Assembly (NCBI GenBank): GCA_014379165.1
Contig: JACMMG010000015.1
Location: 1 to 39,531 of the forward strand
DNA length: 39,531 nt
Direction: 5' to 3'
DNA from: Candidatus Parcubacteria bacterium
GTDB taxonomy: Bacteria; Patescibacteriota; Minisyncoccia; Phycocordibacterales; SBAW01
Part shown: positions 9,500-38,484 of the stretch, piece by piece
Layout: each line of letters starts with the position of its first letter
Numbering within the stretch: position 1 is the first letter of the stretch
Made by a program: the position numbers and the translations under genes
The notes under the pieces: model-generated
The model's input: only the letters and a program-made list of their open reading frames with translations
Told to the model about the DNA's origin: nothing
The model's database searches: none

Positions 9500-9600
9500 C
9501 GCGTCCTCCCTTTCACAGGTGCGGTTTCTAGTTTAAGTACTCCGTATACTTTTTTTCACATTCTGACAGGTTGTGCAAGTGGTATAATATTGTGCGACGT

Positions 9601-10512
9601 ATGGCTAGTGGTGATTTGAAATCTCTTAAAACGCAGTTCCTCGAATATCTCGAGATAGAAAAGGGTCGCTCTGTAAAAACGGTCGAAAATTACGACCGCT
9701 ACATCGACCGTTTTTTGCAGCACAGTAAGATAACCTTTCCCGCAAAGCTGACCGAAACCTCTGTGCGCGAGTTCCGCTTGCACTTAAACCGCCAAGCGGG
9801 CACTTCTGGCACAATGAAGCACAAAACGCAGAACTATTACCTCATTGCCATACGCGCGTTTCTTAAATTTTTGCGAAAGCGTGAGATTGAAAGCCTTAAT
9901 CCCGAGCGCATCGAGCTAGCGAAAGTGGGCGCGCGCGACTTAGACCTCATTACCCACGACGAGCTTAATCGCCTTATGCAAGCGCCCAAGGGGCCAGCGC
10001 TCCAATCGCTTCGGGACAGGGCGATGATGGAACTTCTATTTTCAACCGGTCTACGTGTTTCAGAGCTTGTGGGACTCGACCGCGACCTAGACCTCTCTCG
10101 CGATGAATTTAGCGTGCGTGGCAAAGGTGAAAAAATCCGTGTCGTGTTTCTCTCCCCTACTGCAAAAACGGCGATTAAGCACTATTTAGACAAACGCACC
10201 GACCTCGATAATGCGCTCTTTGTTCAGATGGGAAAAGCGGTAAAAAGCGCTAAAGAGCTACGTCTTACCTCCCGCTCGGTAGAGCGCTTAGTCAAACGTC
10301 ATGCGATTAAGGCTGGAATTACCCGCAAAGTGACCCCACACGTCATTCGGCACTCCTTTGCGACCGATTTGCTTGAAAATGGAGCCGATCTGCGCTCTGT
10401 ACAGGCACTTTTGGGCCATGCCAATATCACCACGACCCAGGTCTATACCCATGTAACAGACAAACACTTGCGGGAAATTCATAAGAACTTCCATGGCAAA
10501 AGGCGCAAATAG
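9601..10512 (+). CDS. xerC: tyrosine recombinase, XerC/XerD family
   Basis: N-terminal SAM-like core-binding domain. Catalytic motifs RHSFAT, LGHANITTTQVYTHV and the R..E box (GLRVSELVGL). Start set to ATG 9601. Confidence 0.9.
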   Translation: MASGDLKSLKTQFLEYLEIEKGRSVKTVENYDRYIDRFLQHSKITFPAKLTETSVREFRLHLNRQAGTSGTMKHKTQNYYLIAIRAFLKFLRKREIESLNPERIELAKVGARDLDLITHDELNRLMQAPKGPALQSLRDRAMMELLFSTGLRVSELVGLDRDLDLSRDEFSVRGKGEKIRVVFLSPTAKTAIKHYLDKRTDLDNALFVQMGKAVKSAKELRLTSRSVERLVKRHAIKAGITRKVTPHVIRHSFATDLLENGADLRSVQALLGHANITTTQVYTHVTDKHLREIHKNFHGKRRK

Positions 10513-13813: not shown

Positions 13814-14230
13814 ATGACCCCATCCCCTAAAAGGAAAATTGGTGACACGGGAGAAGAAATAGCATGTAAGTTTCTCCAAAAAAAAGGCTATAAAATCGTG
13901 GAAAGAAACTACTGGAAGCCTTGGGGAGAGATAGATATCGTCGCCCAAAAGCCGAAATCACTAGTATTTGTCGAAGTAAAATCCGTTTCACGTGAAATTG
14001 AAGTAAAGGGTGGTTCACGTGAAATCACCCTTAGGGAAGGGAATGAAGAGATGCGGCCCGAAGAGAACATGCATCCGGAAAAGCTCAAACGTCTTCACAG
14101 AGCAATACAAACGTACCTATTAGAACGTAAAATTTCTGAAGATAGGATGTGGCAGATTGATTTAGTTTGTGTCTTTTTAGATTTTTCGACTAAAAAGGCT
14201 AAGGTGGAGTTATTAGAAAACATAAGTTAA
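13814..14230 (+). CDS. yraN: YraN-family (UPF0102) endonuclease-like protein
   Basis: GDTGEEIACKFLQKKGYKIVERNYWKPWGEIDIVAQ...LVFVEVKS matches the YraN core. It carries an insertion relative to short family members. Confidence 0.85.
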   Translation: MTPSPKRKIGDTGEEIACKFLQKKGYKIVERNYWKPWGEIDIVAQKPKSLVFVEVKSVSREIEVKGGSREITLREGNEEMRPEENMHPEKLKRLHRAIQTYLLERKISEDRMWQIDLVCVFLDFSTKKAKVELLENIS

Positions 14231-14288
14231 GGGAACACTTATGCCTATTCGATAGGCGAAGGGAACACTTATGCTAAGTACTCTCGCG
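14229..14288 (+). repeat. two tandem 30-nt units sharing AAGGGAACACTTATGC
   Basis: Unit 1 is 14229-14258 and unit 2 is 14259-14288, with an identical 16-mer at the start of each. A degenerate third unit starts at 14289. The motif recurs at 30407-30426. Confidence 0.8.
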
Positions 14289-27369: not shown

Positions 27370-28602
27370 TTATTCAGTCTCTTTGGTTTCTACTACCTCT
27401 GCTGGAGCTTCTGCAGGTGCTTCTTCTGCGGGTGTGGCAGCTTCGCCCGCTTCATCGGCTTTTGCAACTGTTTGACCGCCGACAGACTGAATGTCGATTC
27501 TCCAACCGGTCAGTTTTGCAGCCAAGCGCACATTTTGTCCGCCGCGACCTATCGCTAAACTCTGCTGGTCTTCCGCAACTTTGATTGTTGCTTTGTGTTC
27601 TCCTTCGTCAAGTTCAACAGATGCTACTCGCGCGGGAGAAAGCGCTTCTTCAATAAATGCTTTTGGATCTTCGTTCCATTCAACAATGTCTATCTTCTCG
27701 CCACCCAGTTCGCTCGTGACAGTTGAGACACGCACACCGCGCTGGCCAACTAGGGAACCAACCGGGTCAACGTGCGGGTCGGTTGAAGCAACGGCAACTT
27801 TTGAACGCGAACCGGCTTCGCGCGCGATAGCTTTAAACACGACCGTGCCGTGTGCGGCTTCCGGCGCCTCCATTTCAAAAAGTTTCGCAAGAAAGTTCGA
27901 ATGCGCACGAGAAAGGCGCAAGTAAATGCCGCGCGGGCTTTCTTCTACCTGGTAGAGAAGCGCGCGAATGCGCTCGCCTTGGCGATACCGTTCGCCCGGG
28001 ATTTGTTCTTCGTATGGAAGGATACCCGTTGCTCGGCCAAGGTCAATGTAAATATTGCCGCGCTCCATGCGTTGCACGGTACCGCTTACGATTTCTCCCT
28101 GGCGCGCGCCGTATTCTGCAACGACGGATACTTTTTCTGCTTCGCGGATTTTCTGGATGATAACCTGCTTGGCGGTTTGTGCGGCGATGCGGCCGTAGTC
28201 GTCTTTGCTTTCAAGTGGAAAGACAAGTTCCTCACCAACCTGGGCGTCGCGTTTTATGAACTTAGCGTCCTCAAGTGTAATGTGCTGCTCGGGGTTAAAG
28301 CGCGGAAGCTCAAGAATTGGTTTGCCCTCTTCGTCGTATTGAATTTCCCGTGGCGCTTCTTCTTCGTCTTCGGGCGCGAAGCGCACCGTGTTTTCATCAA
28401 CTACTTCTTTTACCTGCAGGAACTGAGTTGTGCCTGTGTCCATATCAAGGTGCGCACGGATTATCTGTCCTTTTTTTGCGTATTCTTTTTTGTACGCGGT
28501 TGCAAGCGCAGCTTCGATAGCCTCGATAACTTTCACGCGTGGAATGCCGCGCTCTTCTTCAAGCTCGGAGAGAACTGAGTTCATTACTTTTAGATCAAAC
28601 AT
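27370..28602 (-). CDS. nusA: transcription termination/antitermination factor NusA
   Basis: N-terminal domain, S1 (GEIVSGTVQRMERGNIYIDLG) and two KH domains (GQRGVRV, GRGGQNVRLA), with an acidic/Ala-rich tail. Confidence 0.95.
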   Translation of the reverse strand: MFDLKVMNSVLSELEEERGIPRVKVIEAIEAALATAYKKEYAKKGQIIRAHLDMDTGTTQFLQVKEVVDENTVRFAPEDEEEAPREIQYDEEGKPILELPRFNPEQHITLEDAKFIKRDAQVGEELVFPLESKDDYGRIAAQTAKQVIIQKIREAEKVSVVAEYGARQGEIVSGTVQRMERGNIYIDLGRATGILPYEEQIPGERYRQGERIRALLYQVEESPRGIYLRLSRAHSNFLAKLFEMEAPEAAHGTVVFKAIAREAGSRSKVAVASTDPHVDPVGSLVGQRGVRVSTVTSELGGEKIDIVEWNEDPKAFIEEALSPARVASVELDEGEHKATIKVAEDQQSLAIGRGGQNVRLAAKLTGWRIDIQSVGGQTVAKADEAGEAATPAEEAPAEAPAEVVETKETE

Positions 28603-28653: not shown

Positions 28654-28665
28654 TCAGATGCAATC

Positions 28666-28694
28666 AGTATACTCTCGCTATATACTAGTGTCAA
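28666..28694 (-). promoter_or_regulatory. sigma70-type promoter for nusA
   Basis: On the minus strand: TTGACA (28694-28689), 17-nt spacer, TATACT (28671-28666). Confidence 0.55.
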
Positions 28695-30325
28695 TGCAGG
28701 TTGATGAAGCAGGGCTACGGGATTTTTTGATTGACTCCGGCACACTTTCGCGCCGGCAGTTAAGCGATATAGGGGAAACAAACGCACCTTTATACGACAC
28801 GCTACTTTCGCGCGGCATTATTTCTCAAGATGAGCTGCGTCGCGCAGTTGCAGGAGTCTCCGGTGTACCGTTTGTAGTCCTTGGGCACGATGATATTGCA
28901 ACGGAAGCGCTCCTTTATATACCCGAGCCCATTGCTCGCACGCACAATCTTGCTGGGTTTCGCGTACAGGGTGGCGATTTGGAAGTGGCACTTCTTGATC
29001 TTGAAGATCTCTCGGCGATTACTTTTCTGCAAGAAGAAAGAGGTGTGCGAATACTTCCACGGCTTACGACCGCCGACTCGCTTAAGCGAGCGCTTATTGC
29101 GTACCATAAACACCTTAAAGAAAAATTTGCGGATTCGCTACGCTCCAAAAGTGATCCTATCGGGGCTGCCGATGCACTTTTGGCACACGCGATGCTCCAC
29201 CGCGCCAGCGCAATCCATATATCTGCACGGGAATTTCCCCGCCTCGCCGAAGACTCGCCTCGATTCAGCGAAGCGGGCGTCGAGTCGAGGCGGGTTTCAG
29301 GCCAAGGAGAACTCTTAGTGCGCTATAGGATTAACGGAAAAATGTTTGATGCGATGACGCTGCCGCGCGAAGCTGCGGGGATTATAGAGAGGTTTAAAGA
29401 GCTTGCGAATATTTCTTTAACGCTACCAACTCCACAAGAGGGAAGTTTCCGTGCGCGCTCAGGGGTTCAAGAGGAGATGCGCGTACGTGTTTCTACTATG
29501 CCAAATATGCACGGCGAGCGTGCAGTGCTACAGCTCACCCCCGTTGCGGGCACACTTTCGCGCAAAGGCTTTACGCTTGAGTCACTTGGGTTTCATGGAG
29601 AAAGTCTTGAAAGTGTGTATCGCACACTCAGCAACAGCTCCGGGCTTGTGCTTGTTGAAGGTAGCGAAGGTTCTGGAAAAACTACAACGCTCTACACGCT
29701 TCTAGATATTCTAAGCACCCCGCACCGCCTACTTGCAACAATTGAAGAACATATCGGTTTGCATTTGCCACACACAGAGCAAATGGAAGTCCGTCCGGAA
29801 ATTGGACTCACCATGGATGCCGGATTGCGCGCGATTCTTAAGCAAGACCCGCACGTAGTAATGATCGACAGTATCCGCGATACAAAAACCGCCGCGCTCG
29901 CCGCATCGGCGGCTTCGCGCGGCGCATTTGTCTTAGCAGGTACGCAAGAAAATTTTAAAGACGCAGGTGCAAAAATGCTATTACGAACGCGGGTAGTAGG
30001 GAAGGTCTGCCAGAACTGCAAAGAAAACTATCATCTTTCACGTACGGAGGCCGCACCTTTTGACGGTAAAGCAAATTTTGGCCGCGTACTTACAGCTTTA
30101 AAAGAGGAAGGAATAATTTCAAATGAAGTGCAATGGAAAGATTTACTGTTCTCCCATGCCGTTGGCTGCACAGAATGTGATAGTGGGTTTACGGGAGCGC
30201 TTGGGCTTCAAGAGGTAGAGGTAGGAGGGAAAATAGCGGGCCTTACTTTGGCGGAAGATGGGCTTTTTAAAGTTATTCAAGGACTCACAACAATAGAGGA
30301 GGTTACTAGGGCAATTGAGGCCTAA
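28694..30325 (+). CDS. GspE/PilB-family secretion ATPase homolog, divergent
   Basis: N-terminal T2SSE_N-like domain, VRYRINGK, PTPQEGSF, Walker A GSEGSGKTT (29660-29683) and CxxC...CxxC (CQNC...CTEC). The Walker B and His-box positions are non-canonical. Start set to ATG 28694. Confidence 0.8.
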   Translation: MQVDEAGLRDFLIDSGTLSRRQLSDIGETNAPLYDTLLSRGIISQDELRRAVAGVSGVPFVVLGHDDIATEALLYIPEPIARTHNLAGFRVQGGDLEVALLDLEDLSAITFLQEERGVRILPRLTTADSLKRALIAYHKHLKEKFADSLRSKSDPIGAADALLAHAMLHRASAIHISAREFPRLAEDSPRFSEAGVESRRVSGQGELLVRYRINGKMFDAMTLPREAAGIIERFKELANISLTLPTPQEGSFRARSGVQEEMRVRVSTMPNMHGERAVLQLTPVAGTLSRKGFTLESLGFHGESLESVYRTLSNSSGLVLVEGSEGSGKTTTLYTLLDILSTPHRLLATIEEHIGLHLPHTEQMEVRPEIGLTMDAGLRAILKQDPHVVMIDSIRDTKTAALAASAASRGAFVLAGTQENFKDAGAKMLLRTRVVGKVCQNCKENYHLSRTEAAPFDGKANFGRVLTALKEEGIISNEVQWKDLLFSHAVGCTECDSGFTGALGLQEVEVGGKIAGLTLAEDGLFKVIQGLTTIEEVTRAIEA

Positions 30326-30356
30326 TATAAGGAGAAAACAGCGTTACCCAATATAC

Positions 30357-30385
30357 TTGACAATAAGTCTAGTTAGGTGTATAAT
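30357..30385 (+). promoter_or_regulatory. perfect consensus sigma70 promoter
   Basis: TTGACA (30357-30362), exactly 17-nt spacer, TATAAT (30380-30385). Confidence 0.7.
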
Positions 30386-30421
30386 TGATACATACGCTTG
30401 AAATAGGTTAAGGGCACACTT

Positions 30422-30496
30422 ATGCCGAGTATTCTCGGCGAACAGCACTCTTTAGAGGAGAGGGCGCAAACCATTGGCTTTTCTATCTATTATTGA
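30422..30496 (+). CDS. candidate 24-aa small protein (or the unit is a ~165-nt sRNA)
   Basis: AAGGG SD-like motif 7 nt upstream of ATG 30422. Translation MPSILGEQHSLEERAQTIGFSIYY*. Bracketed by a consensus promoter and a long terminator. Confidence 0.4.
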   Translation: MPSILGEQHSLEERAQTIGFSIYY

Positions 30497-30499
30497 TGG

Positions 30500-30552
30500 G
30501 GCGATTGGGGAGCACTTCTTTTTATAAGGAGTACTGCCTAGTCGCCTTTTTT
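30500..30552 (+). terminator. long intrinsic terminator
   Basis: 19-position stem (30500-30518 / 30528-30546) with 14 Watson-Crick pairs, 3 G-U pairs and 2 mismatches, followed by TTTTTT (30547-30552). Confidence 0.75.
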
Positions 30553-30730
30553 CATACCGGCCTTTGACAAAAGAATAGACGAAAAAGAACAAAGGAGAGA
30601 AATCTCTAAATTGTTGTTCTTCTTCGCCAGACTCTAGGGGATAGCGTAAAAAACTCGAACCCTGGGTATGGCAGGAAGGACCGTAATAATAGTTCGTACG
30701 GTTCGAGGCTCAAAGCAGGGGAGAAGTAAG

Positions 30731-30832
30731 ATGAGCGAATTTGTGGAACGTATGTTCCCCAACCGGTACCACACTGCCGTCTGGGCGCTGGTTGCGGCGA
30801 TTATCACATCGCCGTTCGTGTTCATCGGCTGA
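30731..30832 (+). CDS. candidate small hydrophobic peptide (33 aa)
   Basis: GGGGAG SD upstream of ATG 30731. Translation MSEFVERMFPNRYHTAVWALVAAIITSPFVFIG*, with one TM-like segment. G+C-rich codon third positions like the rest of the island. Confidence 0.4.
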   Translation: MSEFVERMFPNRYHTAVWALVAAIITSPFVFIG

Positions 30833-30846
30833 AGAGGGAGACGAAG

Positions 30847-30960
30847 ATGAATTCGCAGATGTACACGCCGACTCCCTCGTCTGTTCTGGACGAGGAGATA
30901 TGGCAAGACGAGCTCACTGGACACGAGCTCGATACTCTTATCGCCCTCGTTGGCGAATAA
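30847..30960 (+). CDS. candidate small acidic protein (37 aa)
   Basis: GAGGGAG SD upstream of ATG 30847. Translation MNSQMYTPTPSSVLDEEIWQDELTGHELDTLIALVGE*. It starts 14 nt after the previous small ORF. Confidence 0.4.
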   Translation: MNSQMYTPTPSSVLDEEIWQDELTGHELDTLIALVGE

Positions 30961-30995
30961 GAGAATGGTGGTGACGGACTTTTTGCCCGTTACCG

Positions 30996-31042
30996 CCCCT
31001 CTCAAGCTCTTTACGCCTAAGGCGTAGAGAATTTGAGAGGGG
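30996..31042 (+). repeat. conserved bulged hairpin repeat, copy 1
   Basis: CCCCTCTCAAGCTCTTTACGCC-TAA-GGCGTAGAGAATTTGAGAGGGG. Preceded by an unrelated hairpin at 30970-30994. Confidence 0.9.
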
Positions 31043-31186
31043 TTATAGAAATATAATTCCTTCGTCTGCGTACTGACCTCCGTAGACGTAAAACTCGCAA
31101 ACGTTATTCCCGTACGCGGGGATGACAGGACTTTCACACAGTGCTCAAACCGCCCACCCCCGCGATAGCAGGGCTGGGTAGGAGGA

Positions 31187-32470
31187 ATGAAAATGTCGTG
31201 GAAATCTGATCGCATGAACGAAAAAGGTACCCGCCGCACAGCGCTTCGTCAGGAGCGTGCGCCGACCCTCGACGAGGCGATGAGCATGTTCCACGCCTCT
31301 CTGTCAGATGCGAGGCGTGTTGAACAGCGAGCGGGTAAGCGTGGTCTCTCCGGCTCGGGCATTTCGATGCTCGAAAATGCAGGGATCAACGCGTTTGAAT
31401 CTGCAACTGGACATCCGCTGCCCCCTAACCTGGTTGTTTCCGAAAGGAGCAATCTAGCGGTAGCAGGTTACCAGTTGCGCGACGGGGGCTTCCGTTTTTT
31501 TGAACGGGACGAGGCCGAGAAAATCCTCGTCACAGCTGCTCGCTTCGGCGGGTGGATGAAGGCCGCCGCGAAGTTGCCGGGAGTTCGCCGGCTTCTCCGT
31601 AGCACGCAGTCGGCGCGGGGCATCAACAGCCCCGCGACCAAGGTCGACTTGCGGGAAATCGTGCGCCGGTTTCCTTCACCGGGCCGCCTCGAGCGGCTCT
31701 TGTGGAATACGCGTCGTCGTGCGCGGGCGATTCTCTCGGATTTTGGTCCGGAGAAGCCCTCATGGGAGAATCTCGCGCGAGCCCTCCTCCATGACAGCCG
31801 CCCGAACAAGGCGGCAATCATGGCAGTGGCAGCTCAACTCGGTTGTCATTATGGCCGGAAGGCAACTTATCGCGCGGCTCGGGAATGGCTCACTGAGCGA
31901 CGTTCGGCCCTCTTCCCGCATATGGACACCACCGACGGTGTGACCGTCCGCATCGCTGCGGCTCCGGTCTACACAAAACTTGGCGTCGAAGTGTTTAGGG
32001 CTTTGCAGGTTGGCGAATATGGGCAGCGCGAGCTGCTCTGGTTTGTCCGCAAGGGCAAACGCACCTTCCACTGCGAAGAGTACCAGGCGGGATCCTATGT
32101 CGATGGGATATGGGTAACCAGCCCAAAGGCTGCAGTTCGCATTGCGATAGAGGCGTGGCAGAAGCAGGACGAACTCGCTGCCGAGGAGGCCAGGTTGGCC
32201 GCCGAAGCCCGGGAACATCACTCTGGACTCGCCATGTTTCTTGATGGGACCGAACTCGGGTTCTGTCCTCTCATCGACCGTCAGGACTCTTACGCGGCGG
32301 GCAACTGCCACGCAGGGACTGAAGGATGGGTTATGGAGCACGGTTGGAGAGCACGAGTTTTCCTTCCTGGCTTCAAACTCATCCCGTATCTTGGCGACGA
32401 ACGGGTTCGCAGGGTCGTCATGGCGGCACGTCGTCGTCGCGTCGATCAGACCGAAGCAGTCGCGGCTTAG
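31187..32470 (+). CDS. hypothetical Arg-rich protein (about 425 aa), orphan
   Basis: GGAGG at 31181-31185. ATG at 31187 or, with better spacing, 31193. Strong G/C third-position bias. No domain recognised. The antisense ORFs are judged spurious. Confidence 0.65.
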   Translation: MKMSWKSDRMNEKGTRRTALRQERAPTLDEAMSMFHASLSDARRVEQRAGKRGLSGSGISMLENAGINAFESATGHPLPPNLVVSERSNLAVAGYQLRDGGFRFFERDEAEKILVTAARFGGWMKAAAKLPGVRRLLRSTQSARGINSPATKVDLREIVRRFPSPGRLERLLWNTRRRARAILSDFGPEKPSWENLARALLHDSRPNKAAIMAVAAQLGCHYGRKATYRAAREWLTERRSALFPHMDTTDGVTVRIAAAPVYTKLGVEVFRALQVGEYGQRELLWFVRKGKRTFHCEEYQAGSYVDGIWVTSPKAAVRIAIEAWQKQDELAAEEARLAAEAREHHSGLAMFLDGTELGFCPLIDRQDSYAAGNCHAGTEGWVMEHGWRARVFLPGFKLIPYLGDERVRRVVMAARRRRVDQTEAVAA

Positions 32471-32557
32471 CCAGCTGCAATCGGTGATGGGAACACCGGA
32501 AGAAAAATAAAAACTCCAGATGTACCTTTGTTTGGCGCGAGTCTCTCTGACTCGTGC

Positions 32558-32604
32558 CGTCTTTCAAGCGCTTTACGCCCGAGGCGTAGAGAATTTGAAA
32601 GGGG
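32558..32604 (+). repeat. conserved bulged hairpin repeat, copy 2
   Basis: Shares an identical 43-nt core with copy 3. Preceded by an unrelated 9-bp hairpin at 32535-32557. Confidence 0.9.
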
Positions 32605-32655
32605 AGGTTAAATTAGTTTCGCGTGCTCCCCGCAACCCTAAAAGAGGAGGGCAAA

Positions 32656-32856
32656 ATGCAAGAACGCGATAAGTTCTGGGAGGAAGTCGAGCATTTCGGC
32701 TTCTGGCGCGCATTTGAGAGCGCCGAAGTTCAGCGGGAGGAAGAAAAGAGAAGGAAGTCTGCGGCGAGAAATCGGCCTGCAGAGTCTACTACTCTGAACT
32801 TCGTTCGCGCCGGCGAAACGCGACCCGGCATCCCGCTGTACGTTTTTGAACAATAG
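32656..32856 (+). CDS. hypothetical small charged protein (66 aa)
   Basis: GAGGAGG SD (32644-32650) upstream of ATG 32656. Translation MQERDKFWEEVEHFGFWRAFESAEVQREEEKRRKS... Confidence 0.45.
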   Translation: MQERDKFWEEVEHFGFWRAFESAEVQREEEKRRKSAARNRPAESTTLNFVRAGETRPGIPLYVFEQ

Positions 32857-32889
32857 GGAACAGTGAGGTTCCCGGAAAGGAAGGATAAA

Positions 32890-33333
32890 GTGCTGAGAAA
32901 AATCGCAACCCTGTTCTTCATGGTGCTGTGCGTTGCATATGCGATATGCTGTTCGCTGGTCTTCACCGAAGTGAAAGAAATTACCCACTTCGGATTTCTG
33001 CCGCCAATCCTGGCCGCAGTCTTGGCCGATAGCGGAGCGATGCACATGGTCGCGTTCCTCGCCGTTTTCTTCGCGCTCGGTTCCGGTCTCTTTGCTTGGG
33101 ACTGGTGGAGGTTGCCACGGTTACACGGCCGATACTACCAGGCCGAAGTAGTCGTCTTCCCCGATGACAATCCGGAATATTCGATTGAAGGGAAGATCTA
33201 TGCTCTATGGCTATGTGCTTGGGTGGAAATGTACACCCTCGCGCTTGGGCACTATGGCGCAAAGATGCGGCAAGTTCACCAGATCGACGCTCGCGATGCT
33301 GTCTACTATCGGCGGTACGAGCAGGCTCAATAA
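32890..33333 (+). CDS. hypothetical multi-TM membrane protein (147 aa)
   Basis: GTG 32890 after GGAAGGA (the track start GTG 32863 has poor SD spacing). At least three hydrophobic helices. No family recognised. Confidence 0.55.
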   Translation: MLRKIATLFFMVLCVAYAICCSLVFTEVKEITHFGFLPPILAAVLADSGAMHMVAFLAVFFALGSGLFAWDWWRLPRLHGRYYQAEVVVFPDDNPEYSIEGKIYALWLCAWVEMYTLALGHYGAKMRQVHQIDARDAVYYRRYEQAQ

Positions 33334-33376
33334 CAACTGGGGGGCGCGACGAGATGAGTAACTCTCGCGCCGCCCA

Positions 33377-33421
33377 CCCTTTCAAGCGCTTTACGCCCGA
33401 GGCGTAGAGAATTTGAAAGGG
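33377..33421 (+). repeat. conserved bulged hairpin repeat, copy 3
   Basis: CCCTTTCAAGCGCTTTACGCC-CGA-GGCGTAGAGAATTTGAAAGGG. Preceded by an unrelated hairpin at 33343-33371. Confidence 0.9.
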
Positions 33422-33482
33422 TTACAGCAATAGTGCGGCGGACCCTGCGCTCATGTATTTGGGCGCCAGTAGGAGTAAGCGT

Positions 33483-33677
33483 ATGCGTACGAGTAAGTTA
33501 TGGGAGAATCGTAGCGATGAGGAACAAGCAGACATCCTTACTGCTGCGGCGATCGCATATACGGCGCGGTCATTTGCTCAGGAACGCGATCAAAAGCCAA
33601 TTGATGCGGCACATGATCGCGGCCAAGCGCAAGTTGCTTGGCAAGACGCGTTTGACCTGATCTATAACAAACCCTGA
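33483..33677 (+). CDS. hypothetical small protein (64 aa)
   Basis: AGGAG (33471-33475) lies 7 nt upstream of ATG 33483. Translation MRTSKLWENRSDEEQADILTAAAIAYTARSF... Followed by a GC-rich terminator hairpin. Confidence 0.45.
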   Translation: MRTSKLWENRSDEEQADILTAAAIAYTARSFAQERDQKPIDAAHDRGQAQVAWQDAFDLIYNKP

Positions 33678-33684
33678 TCTCTCT

Positions 33685-33727
33685 TCCGGCGGCCCGCACG
33701 CGGGCCGCCGGAGAAGCTTTGTTCTTT
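33685..33727 (+). terminator. GC-rich hairpin terminator closing the island
   Basis: TCCGGCGGCCCG-CACG-CGGGCCGCCGGA 12-bp stem, then a T-rich tail (GCTTTGTTCTTT). Confidence 0.65.
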
Positions 33728-33828
33728 AGTTATGTATGGTCGCCTTTGTGCTGTGAGTGGATCCTCTAGCGCTTAATCTTCGGATTGAACGCATTCCATT
33801 CGCAGCCCAATGGCGATCAGCAGCAAAC

Positions 33829-33861
33829 AGAAGCCCCGCACAAAAATTGTGCGGGGCTTCT
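33829..33861. other. orphan perfect 15-bp hairpin
   Basis: AGAAGCCCCGCACAA-AAA-TTGTGCGGGGCTTCT. No adjacent ORF that it obviously terminates. Confidence 0.8.
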
Positions 33862-33915
33862 CGTTACTCTGTTTTATCCATAGCCCCGGCTCCTCATCTC
33901 AGCTCGCTTATCTTT

Positions 33916-33953
33916 ACTTGTTTAGTGTTCACGGTCGTGTATTATAAGCAAGT
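33916..33953 (+). promoter_or_regulatory. imperfect palindrome overlapping promoter-like elements, abutting PaaX-like start
   Basis: The left half TTACTTGTTTAGTGTTCACGGTCGTG (from 33914) matches the left half of the perfect palindrome at 34574-34611. It contains TTGTTT, a 16-nt spacer and TATTAT, ending 8 nt before ATG 33954. Confidence 0.5.
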
Positions 33954-34571
33954 ATGGCAAATGGAATCGGGAAGAAAAGATCGCTTGAAGAAGAATCAAG
34001 AAAACGCCTGCGACGTAGAAAAATAGAGAATGCTGTTTTGAATACTCTAACCGCAACCGCCGGTTTGGCAGTTGCGGTTACTGCGCCCAACATGCTTCGC
34101 ATGCTCAAACACATTGATCCCGACTGGAGAAAAAAACGCGATCCCCGTCAGCGACTTTTTGAAACAGCGAGTCGACTTAAGCGCAAAGGCCTTGTGATAT
34201 TTGTTCAAGAATCCGGGAAGACGCACATGCGTATCACTCGCCACGGCAGAGAAATATTGAGGCAAGATTTTTTGACGCCACATTCTTTGCCGAAACCTAA
34301 AAAGTGGGACGGTAGGTGGAGACTCGTTATTTTTGATATCCCGGAAACACAACGATCAGTGCGGGATAAGATTCGTAGTGCTATTACAACGTTCGGTTTC
34401 GTGTGCTTGCAAGACAGTGTATGGGTGTATCCGTATGATTGTGAGGAGTTGGTAGCGCTTTTTAAGGCTGAACTTAAGATCGGTAAAAACCTCTTGTATC
34501 TTATTGCCGATGCTATTGAGTATGACAAACCACTGCGAGCAAAATTCGGTCTTCCGGAACAGACTTCTTAG
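33954..34571 (+). CDS. PaaX-family / Cas2-fold wHTH regulator-like protein
   Basis: WDGRWRLVIFDIPETQRSVRDKIRSAITTFGFVCLQDSVWVYP matches the PaaX C-terminal/Cas2-like signature. N-terminal basic region plus a wHTH-like segment. Confidence 0.75.
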   Translation: MANGIGKKRSLEEESRKRLRRRKIENAVLNTLTATAGLAVAVTAPNMLRMLKHIDPDWRKKRDPRQRLFETASRLKRKGLVIFVQESGKTHMRITRHGREILRQDFLTPHSLPKPKKWDGRWRLVIFDIPETQRSVRDKIRSAITTFGFVCLQDSVWVYPYDCEELVALFKAELKIGKNLLYLIADAIEYDKPLRAKFGLPEQTS

Positions 34572-34573
34572 TT

Positions 34574-34611
34574 ACTTGTTTAATACTCACGATCGTGAGT
34601 ATTAAACAAGT
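34574..34611. promoter_or_regulatory. perfect 38-bp palindrome between PaaX-like gene and tpiA
   Basis: ACTTGTTTAATACTCACGA|TCGTGAGTATTAAACAAGT. It starts 3 nt after the stop codon. Confidence 0.85.
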
Positions 34612-34655
34612 GAATTCGAATAAAATTTGGTATACAGATATGGTATAGTCATTTT

Positions 34656-35414
34656 GTGAAAAAGAGATTGGTTGTCGGAAACTGGAAAATGTATGTCGAA
34701 GAGGCAAGTGAAGCGCGGGCATTCGGGCTCCAATTGCGCCGCAAAGCCCGCAGTCTTTCAGGAGTAGATGTCTGGCTAGCACCTCCTTTTATATTTCTCC
34801 CCAGCGTAGCGCAAGTTCTTGAGAGCTCCCCGGTTAAAGTGGGCGCGCAAGCGGTTTCTTCTTTTGCCGAAGGCGCGCATACGGGTGATGTGTCCGCACA
34901 TATGCTTAAAGAGGCGGGAGCGAACTTCGCAATTGTCGGGCATTCCGAACGTCGCATTGCGGGCGACACCAACGAGCGCGTGCGGCAACAGCTGGAACGA
35001 ACGATAGAGGCAGGACTTTCCGCAATTGTATGCATCGGCGAGCGTGAGCGCGACAAAGAGGGCGAACATTTTGAATTTTTAGAAGCACAAATCAATTCTG
35101 CATTTCTGACGTTTCCATTTACGCTCAGCAAAGTGGTCATTGCATATGAACCAGTGTGGGCAATAGGGAAGCGGGCGGATGAAGCGATGCAACCGCATGA
35201 CCTTCAGGAGATGACTATTTTTATCAAGAAAACTCTCACAGATATTTTAGGAAGAGAAAAGGCAAGCCGCGTTCCAATTCTTTATGGCGGATCAGTCGAA
35301 CCTGAAAACGCCGGGGCGTTAGTGCAAGAAGGCACAGTGGATGGATTGTTAGTCGGACACGCAAGTCAAAATTTTGAGCAATTTTTTGAGATAATCAAAG
35401 CATGCAAGAAGTAA
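34656..35414 (+). CDS. tpiA: triosephosphate isomerase
   Basis: GTG start. VVGNWKMY, IVGHSERR, AYEPVWAIG and LYGGSV are canonical TIM motifs. Confidence 0.93.
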   Translation: MKKRLVVGNWKMYVEEASEARAFGLQLRRKARSLSGVDVWLAPPFIFLPSVAQVLESSPVKVGAQAVSSFAEGAHTGDVSAHMLKEAGANFAIVGHSERRIAGDTNERVRQQLERTIEAGLSAIVCIGERERDKEGEHFEFLEAQINSAFLTFPFTLSKVVIAYEPVWAIGKRADEAMQPHDLQEMTIFIKKTLTDILGREKASRVPILYGGSVEPENAGALVQEGTVDGLLVGHASQNFEQFFEIIKACKK

Positions 35415-36726: not shown

Positions 36727-37979
36727 AATCCTTGTTATCCATGCGGCATATAACAAAATTACAGCCCACGCTTCTTTTGTATAGCTTTGCGCTGGCGATT
36801 ATTGTCCTGGGTGCAGCTCTTCTTTCTTCTACGGAACCTCGTTTGCAAGCACAAACTGCGGCAAGCAACGCGGGAGTCTTTTCCGGCTACGCCTGGAGCG
36901 ACAACATCGGTTGGATCGACTTTAATCCGGTTAATGGCTCGGGTGTATATGTTTCGCCCACAGACGGGATAACACTCGGTGGCTACGCCTGGAGCGACAA
37001 CATCGGTTGGATCAGTTTTAATGAGAATAGCGGTTGCCCGAGCGGATTGGGACAATGTCGCCCATACCTGCAGGGATCAAAACCAGGCAGTATCCGGCTG
37101 TATGGATGGGCGTATGCAGTTTCCGCAAGTGACGGCTGGGATGGTTGGATTAGTTTGCGCGGCAACGACACGAATGCTGCAGCAAGCGTTTCAGGCAGTA
37201 CTCTTACTTTCAACGGTTATGCATGGGGAAGCGAGGTTGTCGGCTGGGTGCAGTATAGCGGCTCACCAAACAGCAACCCTCTTAAGGTGGCACTCACCCA
37301 ATGTAATGATGGGATAGACAACAACAGCAACTCGCTTGTCGACACCGCCGACACGGCAGTGTGTACTGCACGCTCGGACACGAGCGAAGGCGGCATTACG
37401 CCAACTATAGGAACATTTAACTGCGTGGCGCCGTCAAATAATCCACCTTTGACTTCCGGCCAGAGCTGCATGCTTACCTGGAGTGGCGTGGTCAATGGAA
37501 GTTCCGCAAGTATTGATCAGGGTATCGGCTCGGTAACGCCTGTCAGCGGTGGAAGTATTACGACCGGGGCCCTTGCGGCAACTAAGACCTACAGGTTCAC
37601 TGTCACTTCCTCAACCGGCGGAATTGCCTTCCGTGACGCTACCGTGACGGTGAACCCCGCGGGAGGACCAGTTCCAACGGGCGCTTTTTCTGCAACCTCG
37701 CCGGTTCGAAAGGGCGGCAGCACCACACTTTCATGGAGTGGCATACAAAATGCTTCCAGCTGTACGATTTCTGCAAATCCAAGTGCGGGGCTCGGTGGCG
37801 ACTATACAACGTCAATAAGCAGTCCTGCTACAGCAGGTTCTCGTACGGCAAGCAATCTTCAGACCAGCCCGACAATCTTTACCCTTATGTGCGTACCATC
37901 AGGCGGCGGGGCCGCACAGGCAACCGGTCAACCTGCAACCGTCATTGTTACCCCGATCCCTCGGTATCAGGAGATATAA
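36723..37979 (+). CDS. secreted/anchored Trp-rich repeat protein
   Basis: N-terminal TM/signal segment. Four GYAWS(D/E)NIGWI(S/D)FN-like repeats, two of them encoded by an identical 33-nt repeat. Thr/Ser/Gly-rich beta-type C-terminal region. Confidence 0.65.
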   Translation: MKSLLSMRHITKLQPTLLLYSFALAIIVLGAALLSSTEPRLQAQTAASNAGVFSGYAWSDNIGWIDFNPVNGSGVYVSPTDGITLGGYAWSDNIGWISFNENSGCPSGLGQCRPYLQGSKPGSIRLYGWAYAVSASDGWDGWISLRGNDTNAAASVSGSTLTFNGYAWGSEVVGWVQYSGSPNSNPLKVALTQCNDGIDNNSNSLVDTADTAVCTARSDTSEGGITPTIGTFNCVAPSNNPPLTSGQSCMLTWSGVVNGSSASIDQGIGSVTPVSGGSITTGALAATKTYRFTVTSSTGGIAFRDATVTVNPAGGPVPTGAFSATSPVRKGGSTTLSWSGIQNASSCTISANPSAGLGGDYTTSISSPATAGSRTASNLQTSPTIFTLMCVPSGGGAAQATGQPATVIVTPIPRYQEI

Positions 37980-37983
37980 AAAT

Positions 37984-38484
37984 ATGTTGTACGAAGAAAA
38001 TAATCTTTTTTCAAATAAAATCCTGTGGTTTTTTGTCGGCAGCGTGGTCGTTCTAGTGGCGATAGGTATGGTCACCTCGTACGTAGTTTTTGGGCGGGCA
38101 AACAACAAAATATCCGAAGAACAGCCTCCTGTGAACGCTGCCGTGAGCGAGAGCGTTAAACAGGCAGAAATAAACACTGCACTTGAATCTCTTACTCCGC
38201 CTCCGCCTTCTCGATCTCAAAGTGAAAATGAGAATGCGCTAGGCAGTCTTTCGGCTCCAAGCCAAAGCGGTTCAAGCGGAAGCGGCTCGACTGGAAGCGA
38301 CACAAGTCAGAGCAATGCGAATGCAAGCGCTCAAGAACAACCCCCGACTCCTCCTTCCTCTAAAGAAGAAGCAGCCGCGCTCAAGAGTCTTTCGGCTCCA
38401 AGCCAAAGCGGCTCGAGCGGAGGCGGAGCAAGTGTAAGCGCTCAGGAACAGCAGGCTGCGCTTGACTCGCTCCAGGCTAATTAA
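37984..38484 (+). CDS. membrane-anchored Ser/Gly-rich repeat protein
   Basis: ATG 37984 after GGAG. One TM helix. Repeated LxSLSAPSQSGSSG modules. Confidence 0.55.
   Translation: MLYEENNLFSNKILWFFVGSVVVLVAIGMVTSYVVFGRANNKISEEQPPVNAAVSESVKQAEINTALESLTPPPPSRSQSENENALGSLSAPSQSGSSGSGSTGSDTSQSNANASAQEQPPTPPSSKEEAAALKSLSAPSQSGSSGGGASVSAQEQQAALDSLQAN

Follow-up and report, generated by a model that had tools for sequence, protein, structure and literature searches.

Recurrent hairpins between neighboring genes are known from integrons, phages and bacterial chromosomes. Here, a hairpin family of this general kind is described from a 39,531-nt stretch of a Candidatus Parcubacteria assembly (GCA_014379165.1, contig JACMMG010000015.1, positions 1 to 39,531 of the forward strand; the window hereafter), where its copies lie between small orphan genes in the interval from pilB to tpiA. 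In arrays of integron attC sites, including the clusters of attC sites lacking integron integrases (CALINs), and in this locus alike, promoterless and mostly orphan open reading frames (ORFs) follow one another on the same strand, behind a single promoter, and turn over fast. Both also delimit each unit with an imperfect hairpin that is strand-asymmetric, conserved at its base and variable at its apex. The repetitive extragenic palindromes (REPs) and bacterial interspersed mosaic elements (BIMEs) of enterobacteria are also intercistronic imperfect palindromes, and REPs can stabilize the upstream mRNA against 3' exonucleases. The RNase III hairpins of the phage T7 early genes resemble the present elements in having two stems with an internal loop and in recurring between the cistrons of one transcript. 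The Correia elements of Neisseria (also known as Neisseria miniature insertion sequences, NEMIS) are repeated intergenic hairpin elements whose transcripts are RNase III substrates and which alter the stability of neighboring mRNAs; unlike the hairpins described here, they are mobile, carry terminal inverted repeats and are scattered over the genome.

Two further precedents concern hypervariable regions and mRNA fate. In T4-type phages, small orphan ORFs of the hypervariable, hyperplastic regions are bracketed by conserved stem-loop composites, the promoter early stem-loop (PeSL) motifs, much as ORFs are by the composites described below; recombination between PeSL copies has been proposed as the motor of modular shuffling (PMC2839356, PMC4122927). 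Selective RNA processing and stabilization in operons is an established principle (PMC10667835).

The candidate phyla radiation (CPR, or Patescibacteria) comprises bacteria with tiny genomes and few recognized mobile elements, in which regulatory RNAs are almost unexplored. The locus described here is a defined hotspot of rapid orphan-gene turnover, set in a conserved frame of promoter, leader and 3' end, with a covarying, strand-specific hairpin at each junction. If the hairpins are RNA processing or stabilizing signals, they would represent a compact and testable form of operon punctuation in an uncultured phylum and would offer a sequence tag by which such accessory operons could be located; as recombination sites, they would represent a new route of gene-cassette assembly outside integrons. 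Either way, the family can be modeled now and searched for across genomes.

A Covarying, Strand-Specific Hairpin Family

The hairpins are a conserved, covarying, strand-biased and previously uncatalogued family, restricted to arrays that lie between one promoter and one terminator inside an accessory-operon platform of a few CPR lineages. The junction unit consists of a gene-specific GC-rich stem-loop without a U-tract and, 0-2 nt away, a conserved stem-loop of 40-61 nt. The base of the latter reads YCCYUUCAAG(C)...UUUGARRGGR; two G·U wobbles are fixed, one C is mismatched, and the apex varies. As the initial annotation of this DNA had proposed, the window holds exactly three copies, all on the + strand (Table 1), and copies 2 and 3 share an identical 43-nt core, CTTTCAAGCGCTTTACGCCCGAGGCGTAGAGAATTTGAAAGGG, with exact matches at 32561-32603 and 33379-33421. 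The core of copy 1 (30999-31041) is 88% identical to it, and shuffled sequence contains no match (0). When the whole window is scanned with the covariance model and all filters are disabled, the three copies score 47.6-53.3 bits and the next best match 12.6 bits.

All three copies fold as predicted, and their composites have z-scores of -5.7 to -9.3 against shuffled controls. The fold comprises an outer stem of 9-12 bp, a very small internal loop and an inner stem of 9-10 bp topped by a triloop. Two details of the initial annotation require correction: the inner stem (CUUUACGCC/GGCGUAGAG, one U·G pair included) spans 9-10 bp rather than 5, and the interruption, described as an asymmetric bulge, is a small and nearly symmetric internal loop formed by a G·U pair and one C mismatch. 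Other details stand, among them the compensatory C-G versus T-A change in the outer stem of copy 1, the non-homologous, U-tract-less GC-rich hairpin that precedes each copy, and the placement of each composite 3' of an ORF and 5' of the next start codon, which lies 52-145 nt away. The tetranucleotide GTTA, said to follow every copy, does so in 3/3 copies of the window but in only 5/23 members of the family. It was also considered as a crossover core and rejected for want of conservation.

Covariance model R1, built from 13 hand-collected copies, recovers only these 13 over 116 kb. Applied to two loci fetched later (L016 and L017; related loci are numbered with the prefix L), it finds nine clear new copies on the + strand (23.9-47.9 bits) and one of ambiguous strand. 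The new copies all lie within the pilB-tpiA interval, and each abuts a different GC hairpin. The resulting family alignment holds 23 copies from 7 loci; 93.6% of its cells form standard pairs and 13 of the 17 pairs show two-sided changes, a level of covariation that 0/500 shuffles reach. When the 3' partners are slid by one to three columns, pairing drops to 22-61%. The wobbles G11·U51 and U16·G46 are fixed in 21/23 and 19/23 copies, respectively, and C12 is almost always unpaired. The two-sided changes and the paired fraction give strong grounds for the earlier suggestion that the structure itself, and not just its sequence, is preserved.

The family is confined to the arrays: about 145 kb of flanking sequence from 7 lineages contains no copy outside them, and all clear copies have one orientation. 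The initial annotation had named two outcomes that would speak against it, a generic repeat dispersed over the genome and a stem neither conserved nor covarying at homologous loci; the flanks hold no dispersed copy, and the homologous loci conserve the stem and covary. At gathering thresholds, Rfam reports only four tRNAs in the window, and a permissive scan of 30300-34660 yields nothing credible. The one ambiguous element, the last hairpin of L016 (7829-7876), matches the model on the - strand (26.2 bits) yet folds better as the + strand (-28.9 vs -16.8 kcal/mol), where a GC hairpin lies ahead of it, as is the case for the other copies.

The two strands of the element are not equivalent. RNA of the + strand folds more stably than that of the - strand in 22/23 copies, with a mean difference of -6.2 kcal/mol (Wilcoxon p = 4.8e-7), and the conserved hairpins contain 55 G·U pairs on the + strand vs 8 on the - strand. 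The upstream GC hairpins are unbiased (27 vs 23 G·U pairs, p = 0.89). The bias of the conserved hairpin in both stability and wobble pairs suggests that it is built for the coding-sense strand, and the simplest reading of these sequence features is that it would act as RNA.

An Accessory Array Between pilB and tpiA

The exact inner-stem pattern has one true match among 185,579 species genomes, a locus (L002) from a metagenome-assembled genome (MAG) labeled Candidatus Saccharibacteria, plus two chance matches. Metagenome contigs give a single chance match, and neither this pattern nor a looser two-arm pattern is found in viral contigs. The exact pattern is too specific to one subtype; since L002 is syntenic with the window, relatives were instead gathered through TpiA homologues. 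They comprise L010 (the L002 contig), L011/L012, L013-L015, L016 and L017, from five CPR/Patescibacteria lineages. L005, with a homologue of the 427-aa array gene, is a sixth context. The source labels of these lineages vary (Saccharibacteria, Adlerbacteria, Paceibacterota). In the window, proteins of the contig are named 'Acetobacteraceae bacterium' by NCBI, a label that is probably wrong: in gene content, in synteny and by its closest relatives, the contig belongs with CPR/Patescibacteria MAGs.

The interval from pilB to tpiA is built alike in all five lineages: behind the same promoter come a conserved leader and a run of small + strand orphan ORFs, and the same hairpin and terminator form the right end. 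Every gene junction carries a variable GC-rich hairpin, directly followed by one that has the base CCCTTTCAAGCNCTT...GAGNNTTTGAAAGGG and an apex that varies. The first array ORF of the window, a small hydrophobic peptide (Table 1), has a counterpart of the same kind in five related pilB-tpiA arrays. In one further lineage, L018/L019, whose TpiA is 61% identical, tpiA starts 20 nt after the pilB stop codon (L018 7979-8001, L019 3794-3816), and this site has no promoter, leader, array or hairpins, which shows that the whole platform is accessory. A Fic-domain gene with a small partner ORF lies on the - strand between pilB and the platform promoter in two relatives (L011 6335-6964, L013 6920-7548); the pilB-tpiA interval thus also collects other accessory genes.

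In the window, the array is preceded by genes for NusA (27370-28602, - strand) and a PilB-like T2SSE ATPase (28658-30325) and followed by tpiA (34656-35414) and pgk. Its five groups of + strand ORFs (33; 37; 427; 66 plus about 150; and 64 aa) match no family in Pfam, PHROG or NCBIfam. All array ORFs and hairpins lie on the + strand behind one common promoter, which is the sole strong promoter-like site within 30300-34700; internal promoter-like sites are absent. No U-tract follows any of the three junction composites. Inside the operon, T-rich tails occur only at the two end hairpins, 33684-33713 and 33830-33861; the few other terminator-like matches of the scan, which are short stems located within ORFs or on the opposite strand, remain at the level expected by chance. 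Every platform locus is closed by a long 3' hairpin of ~85 nt and a canonical terminator (33737-33875 in the window), and a related form is present in L005; across 7 loci, the right-end element shows compensatory change at 12/23 pairs.

Table 1. Positions of the promoter, leader, ORFs, hairpins and 3' elements of the array, numbered from the first nucleotide of the window.
Feature	Position	Strand	Basis or remark
Sigma-70-type consensus promoter TTGACA-17-TATAAT, array head	30357-30385	+	12/12 consensus positions; conserved in 7/7 platform loci
Conserved structured leader, ~340 nt	30393-30730	+	7-locus alignment including L005
First array ORF, 33-aa hydrophobic peptide	30731-30832	+	ORF with Shine-Dalgarno; no Pfam/PHROG match
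37-aa orphan ORF	30847-30960	+	No Pfam/PHROG match
Variable GC-rich hairpin 1, no U-tract	30970-30994	+	Homologous to hairpin preceding L010 copy b
Conserved punctuation hairpin (putative role), copy 1	30996-31042	+	52 bits with model R1; fold -34.2 kcal/mol
5'-UTR hairpin of 427-aa gene, loop UACUGACCUC	31063-31088	+	Stem covaries with homologous L006 hairpin
427-aa orphan ORF	31187-32470	+	No Pfam, NCBIfam or PHROG family; no fold match
Variable GC-rich hairpin 2	32534-32558	+	Fold
Conserved punctuation hairpin (putative role), copy 2	32558-32604	+	47.6 bits; 43-nt core identical to that of copy 3
66-aa orphan ORF	32656-32856	+	No Pfam/PHROG match
Predicted membrane ORF, 156 aa (or 147 aa from 32890)	32863-33333	+	No Pfam/PHROG match
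Variable GC-rich hairpin 3	33339-33375	+	Fold
Conserved punctuation hairpin (putative role), copy 3	33376-33422	+	53.3 bits
64-aa orphan ORF, last gene unit	33483-33677	+	No Pfam/PHROG match
GC-rich hairpin (13 bp) with T-rich tail, closes last unit	33684-33713	+	
Conserved right-end structured element, long hairpin from TGGTCGCC to GGCGATCA	33737-33819	+	Consensus fold of 7 loci
Intrinsic terminator at operon end	33830-33875 (hairpin 33830-33861)	+	Canonical hairpin and U-tract in all relatives

The leader of the window contains a TTTAGAGGAG motif, a terminator-like hairpin (30500-30552) and a TTGTTGTTCTTCTTCGCCAGACT element; across the loci, a TTTTAGAGGAGG-like motif is invariant, and a TTGTTGTTCCTCGTTGCCGG...GGTACGGTACGAGG element is present. 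In the relatives, the leader spans 330-450 nt directly behind the promoter (L010 8950-9285, L011 7088-7530, L013 7758-8172, L016 2892-3258, L017 6788-7238, L005 9978-10320). The leader has no match in Rfam; control of the array as a riboswitch, by attenuation or through a small RNA would be among its conceivable functions. The idea that its 5' end carries half of the hairpin site was dropped, as no match occurs there within 2 mismatches.

Gene Turnover and Selection at the Junctions

Between lineages whose TpiA proteins are 60-75% identical, the gene content of the array is almost wholly different. Only two gene families are shared, an ORF of ~75 aa whose translation starts with 'MC' (the 'MC' ORF) and the 427-aa family. 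The 'MC' ORFs are 47% (L013/L017) and 32% (L010/L011) identical, and a profile search of the protein collection with this family recovers nothing beyond the two queries, so that it offers no route to the platform in other contexts. Ahead of the 'MC' ORF, the hairpin is found at the same position in five lineages; its apex motif GRACARTCGAG is retained in four of these, and its outer stem varies by compensatory substitutions. A kept position with a compensated stem points to long-term selection at one junction. In L016, the copies have strongly diverged from one another and all still fold, which is more readily reconciled with purifying selection acting on each junction than with a recent copy-and-paste origin. 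Copies 2 and 3 of the window are identical despite unrelated flanks.

Comparison of the window with L010 locates one difference in gene content precisely. Hairpin 1 of the window, taken together with its GC hairpin, shares 84% identity with the L010 b composite, and the ORFs on both sides differ. A segment of 2.7 kb with three units (31043-33736) is present in the window, missing from L010, and starts exactly at the 3' end of the shared hairpin; homologous recombination explains this breakpoint, which comes from a single comparison, equally well as site-specific exchange would. Arrays are identical across independent samples of one lineage (L011 = L012; L013 = L014 = L015), and the hairpin subtype tracks the downstream ORF or neither neighbor. 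GC content was considered as a sign of foreign origin and set aside, the difference being clear in the window (0.567 vs 0.486) and not in the relatives.

A search of 5.8 billion proteins with the 427-aa protein yields just 5 homologues on other contigs; a sixth match is the shorter gene call of its own contig. No PDB fold matches the protein at E < 0.03, and its AlphaFold model has a mean pLDDT (predicted local distance difference test) of 64. In L005, the locus of a 537-aa homologue adjoins murG and shares the promoter, the start of the leader and the right-end element. The 5'-UTR hairpin of the gene, with the conserved loop UACUGACCUC, is found in the window (31063-31088) and in L006 (about 200-226), with stems that differ by compensatory changes, and a similar 'cagtactgact' string comes after hairpin L016e. 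Distant homologues (35-37% identical) on two GC-rich contigs (L007 1460-1556, L008 1540-1633) are followed by three tandem GC-rich hairpins and preceded by a long hairpin that lies outside the conserved family.

A Possible Role in RNA Punctuation

The reading favored here, tentatively, is that the hairpins are RNA punctuation elements which would process and stabilize a polycistronic transcript and would also supply homology for the turnover of gene units. The accessory operon inserted between pilB and tpiA would be copied into one long polycistronic RNA. The conserved stem-loop would be recognized, and probably cut, by a double-strand-specific factor, which might be an enzyme of the RNase III type or a protein dedicated to binding the hairpin. 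The adjacent GC hairpin would then shield the upstream cistron from 3'-exonucleases, and the transcript would be split into separately stabilized mRNAs, a case of selective RNA processing and stabilization. A likely side effect concerns the genes themselves: because the motif of ~45 nt recurs between unrelated genes, it can serve as portable homology through which units may be gained and lost.

An RNA element is favored because the hairpins lie inside one transcription unit, are strand-specific, have fixed wobbles and are coupled to a GC hairpin without a U-tract. The covariation of the stem, the persistence of the hairpin ahead of the 'MC' ORF and the diverged but still folding copies of L016 are counted on the same side. 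The junction GC hairpins lack the U-tracts that the operon's own terminators possess, which suggests that they are built not to terminate. The intercistronic stems, which measure 15-26 bp (median about 17) and contain a small internal loop, are similar to signals for the processing of double-stranded RNA, and PNPase and RNase Y are both encoded within the window. In their putative action, the hairpins are most like intercistronic RNA processing or stabilizing signals, while in layout they resemble integron and PeSL arrays; by the features tested, they are not members of the attC, PeSL, REP or terminator families. The proposed outcome, separately stabilized mRNAs, is like that of the T7 RNase III sites and of selective RNA processing (PMC10667835), with cleavage only proposed here. 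The T7 sites differ in two respects: the sequence of the base stem is far more conserved in the present family, and its obligatory adjacent GC hairpin has no T7 counterpart.

Several observations weigh against a role in RNA processing. The sequence of the outer stem is more conserved than RNase III requires, and several copies have only 15-17 bp and are thus short for classical RNase III substrates, which span roughly two helical turns. Folded + strand single-stranded DNA would tolerate G·T pairs, so that the strand bias alone would be compatible with a role in DNA. Finally, almost all units differ by lineage yet each junction keeps its hairpin, which needs a DNA-level process coupled to the hairpin.

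Alternative Explanations

This last point leads to the main alternative, namely that the hairpin, folded as single-stranded DNA, would be a site at which a recombinase (Xer-type or other) moves the units, an attC analogue without an integrase. The strong promoter followed by same-strand, promoterless and mostly orphan ORFs, each bounded by a hairpin with conserved base and variable apex, is an integron-like layout. The near-complete gene turnover between lineages with 60-75% identical TpiA, the three extra units that begin at the 3' end of the hairpin shared with L010, the identity of copies 2 and 3 between unrelated flanks, the platform missing entirely from one lineage, and the occurrence of the 427-aa gene family next to hairpins in other contexts can all be counted for it, as can the fact that attC sites are themselves strand-asymmetric hairpins. 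The details fit less well. The integron core sites R''/R' (RYYYAAC...GTTRRRY, correctly spaced, by regular expression on both strands) occur in 0/23 composites, no integrase (IntI) lies beside the arrays, and the 8-10 kb around six arrays contain no called gene for a tyrosine or serine recombinase or a HUH enzyme; the attC affinity considered in the initial annotation is therefore not borne out. The sole recombinase found in the window (9571-10512, 20 kb off) scores as XerC/D and, with 131.9 bits vs a TIGR02249 cut-off of 265, remains below the threshold for integron integrases. The present hairpins measure 40-61 nt vs 57-141 nt for attC, and every copy is paired with a separate GC hairpin. 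Their subtype is independent of the upstream ORF, whereas that of integron attC tracks it. The source of the asymmetry differs as well: attC relies on extrahelical bases on the bottom strand, whereas here G·U wobbles at fixed positions make the mRNA-sense (top) strand the better-pairing one in 22/23 copies, and of the features expected of attC bottom-strand folding, a small internal loop is present and conserved extrahelical bases are not seen. Since the arrays are also unchanged across independent samples, recombination at an integron-like site appears unlikely. A broader proposal, which we consider doubtful, is that the locus is a CPR gene-capture platform, integron-like without an integron integrase: units would be swapped behind a fixed promoter and leader at strand-specific single-stranded-DNA hairpins, by a housekeeping Xer or an enzyme not yet recognized and possibly with transforming DNA as substrate, and the hairpins would also punctuate the transcript. 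The PeSL motifs, too, differ from the present hairpins. PeSLs contain an early promoter, whereas no promoter-like site lies at or after the three composites of the window; the present family is cellular, from CPR bacteria and limited to a single locus; and within a single array, as in L016, the divergence between its copies can exceed what homologous recombination would tolerate.

The hairpins could instead act on transcription itself, with each tandem pair working as a factor-dependent terminator, pause site or attenuator, so that expression would fall along the array and the leader would possibly be antiterminating. A GC-rich hairpin directly after each ORF, the invariable presence of two adjacent stem-loops and the long, conserved, structured leader with a terminator-like hairpin ahead of the array are in line with this idea, and tandem terminators without U-tracts have been described in other phyla. 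However, no junction composite has a U-tract, whereas the terminal terminators of the operon do, and the conserved sequence, fixed wobbles and mismatch of the second hairpin are left unexplained, which makes transcriptional punctuation rather improbable. Least probable by far is a selfish repeat, a REP-, Correia- or MITE-like element (miniature inverted-repeat transposable element) that would have invaded intergenic spaces without serving any function itself. Its attraction lies in the general appearance of the family, a repeated, imperfect, intergenic palindrome of 40-60 nt with identical copies in one genome. Against it, each sampled genome has a single locus; copies are absent from the flanks of about 145 kb and from the lineage devoid of the platform; and the elements have one orientation, no terminal inverted repeats and no target-site duplications, always abut a GC hairpin and, with compensatory substitutions in the stem, remain in place at orthologous junctions. 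Across the genome, metagenome and viral collections, moreover, the exact-pattern scans gave only one true relative. Of the other affiliations raised in the initial annotation, REP/BIME membership fails because REPs are found genome-wide, in both orientations and with REP-associated tyrosine transposases (RAYTs), whereas this family occupies one operon in one orientation, with no dispersed copies in the flanks of about 145 kb from 7 lineages; a relation to HUH-enzyme sites finds no support, in that no HUH or RAYT gene is among the ORFs of the window scanned against Pfam.

Several more specific identities were considered and rejected. A promoter within the hairpin, suggested by the -35-like TTGAAA of the 3' arm, lacks a consistent -10 box, and the apex varies in length. 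The resemblance to boxA (GCUCUUUA) was dropped, as the sequence lies in the stem. Domain V of group II introns, suggested by an AGC with G·U, has other loops and a bulge that is missing here, and many copies occur without a reverse transcriptase. DNA uptake sequences were dropped because the motif is not dispersed, and arrays of clustered regularly interspaced short palindromic repeats (CRISPR) or tandem interspaced guide RNAs (TIGR) because the spacers are genes of 0.3-1.5 kb.

Other Repeats and Insertions in the Window

The window contains several further repeats outside the hairpin family. One of them, (A/G)AAGGG(A/C)ACACTTATGC..., forms a tandem pair after the gene upstream of tRNA-Pro (14222-14286) and occurs once in the leader (30403-30437), where it is an insertion relative to all relatives. 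Between the array and tpiA, a PaaX/Cas2-like gene (33954-34571) is flanked directly by two 40-nt palindromes (33914-33953 and 34572-34611) that are 78% identical to each other; the gene is absent from the corresponding position in the relatives. Further downstream, two 42-nt direct repeats, 93% identical and 96 nt apart, lie inside a 447-aa ORF without a Pfam family (36885-37022), and two 64-nt direct repeats, 81% identical and 141 nt apart, overlap a 179-aa ORF without a family (38236-38440).

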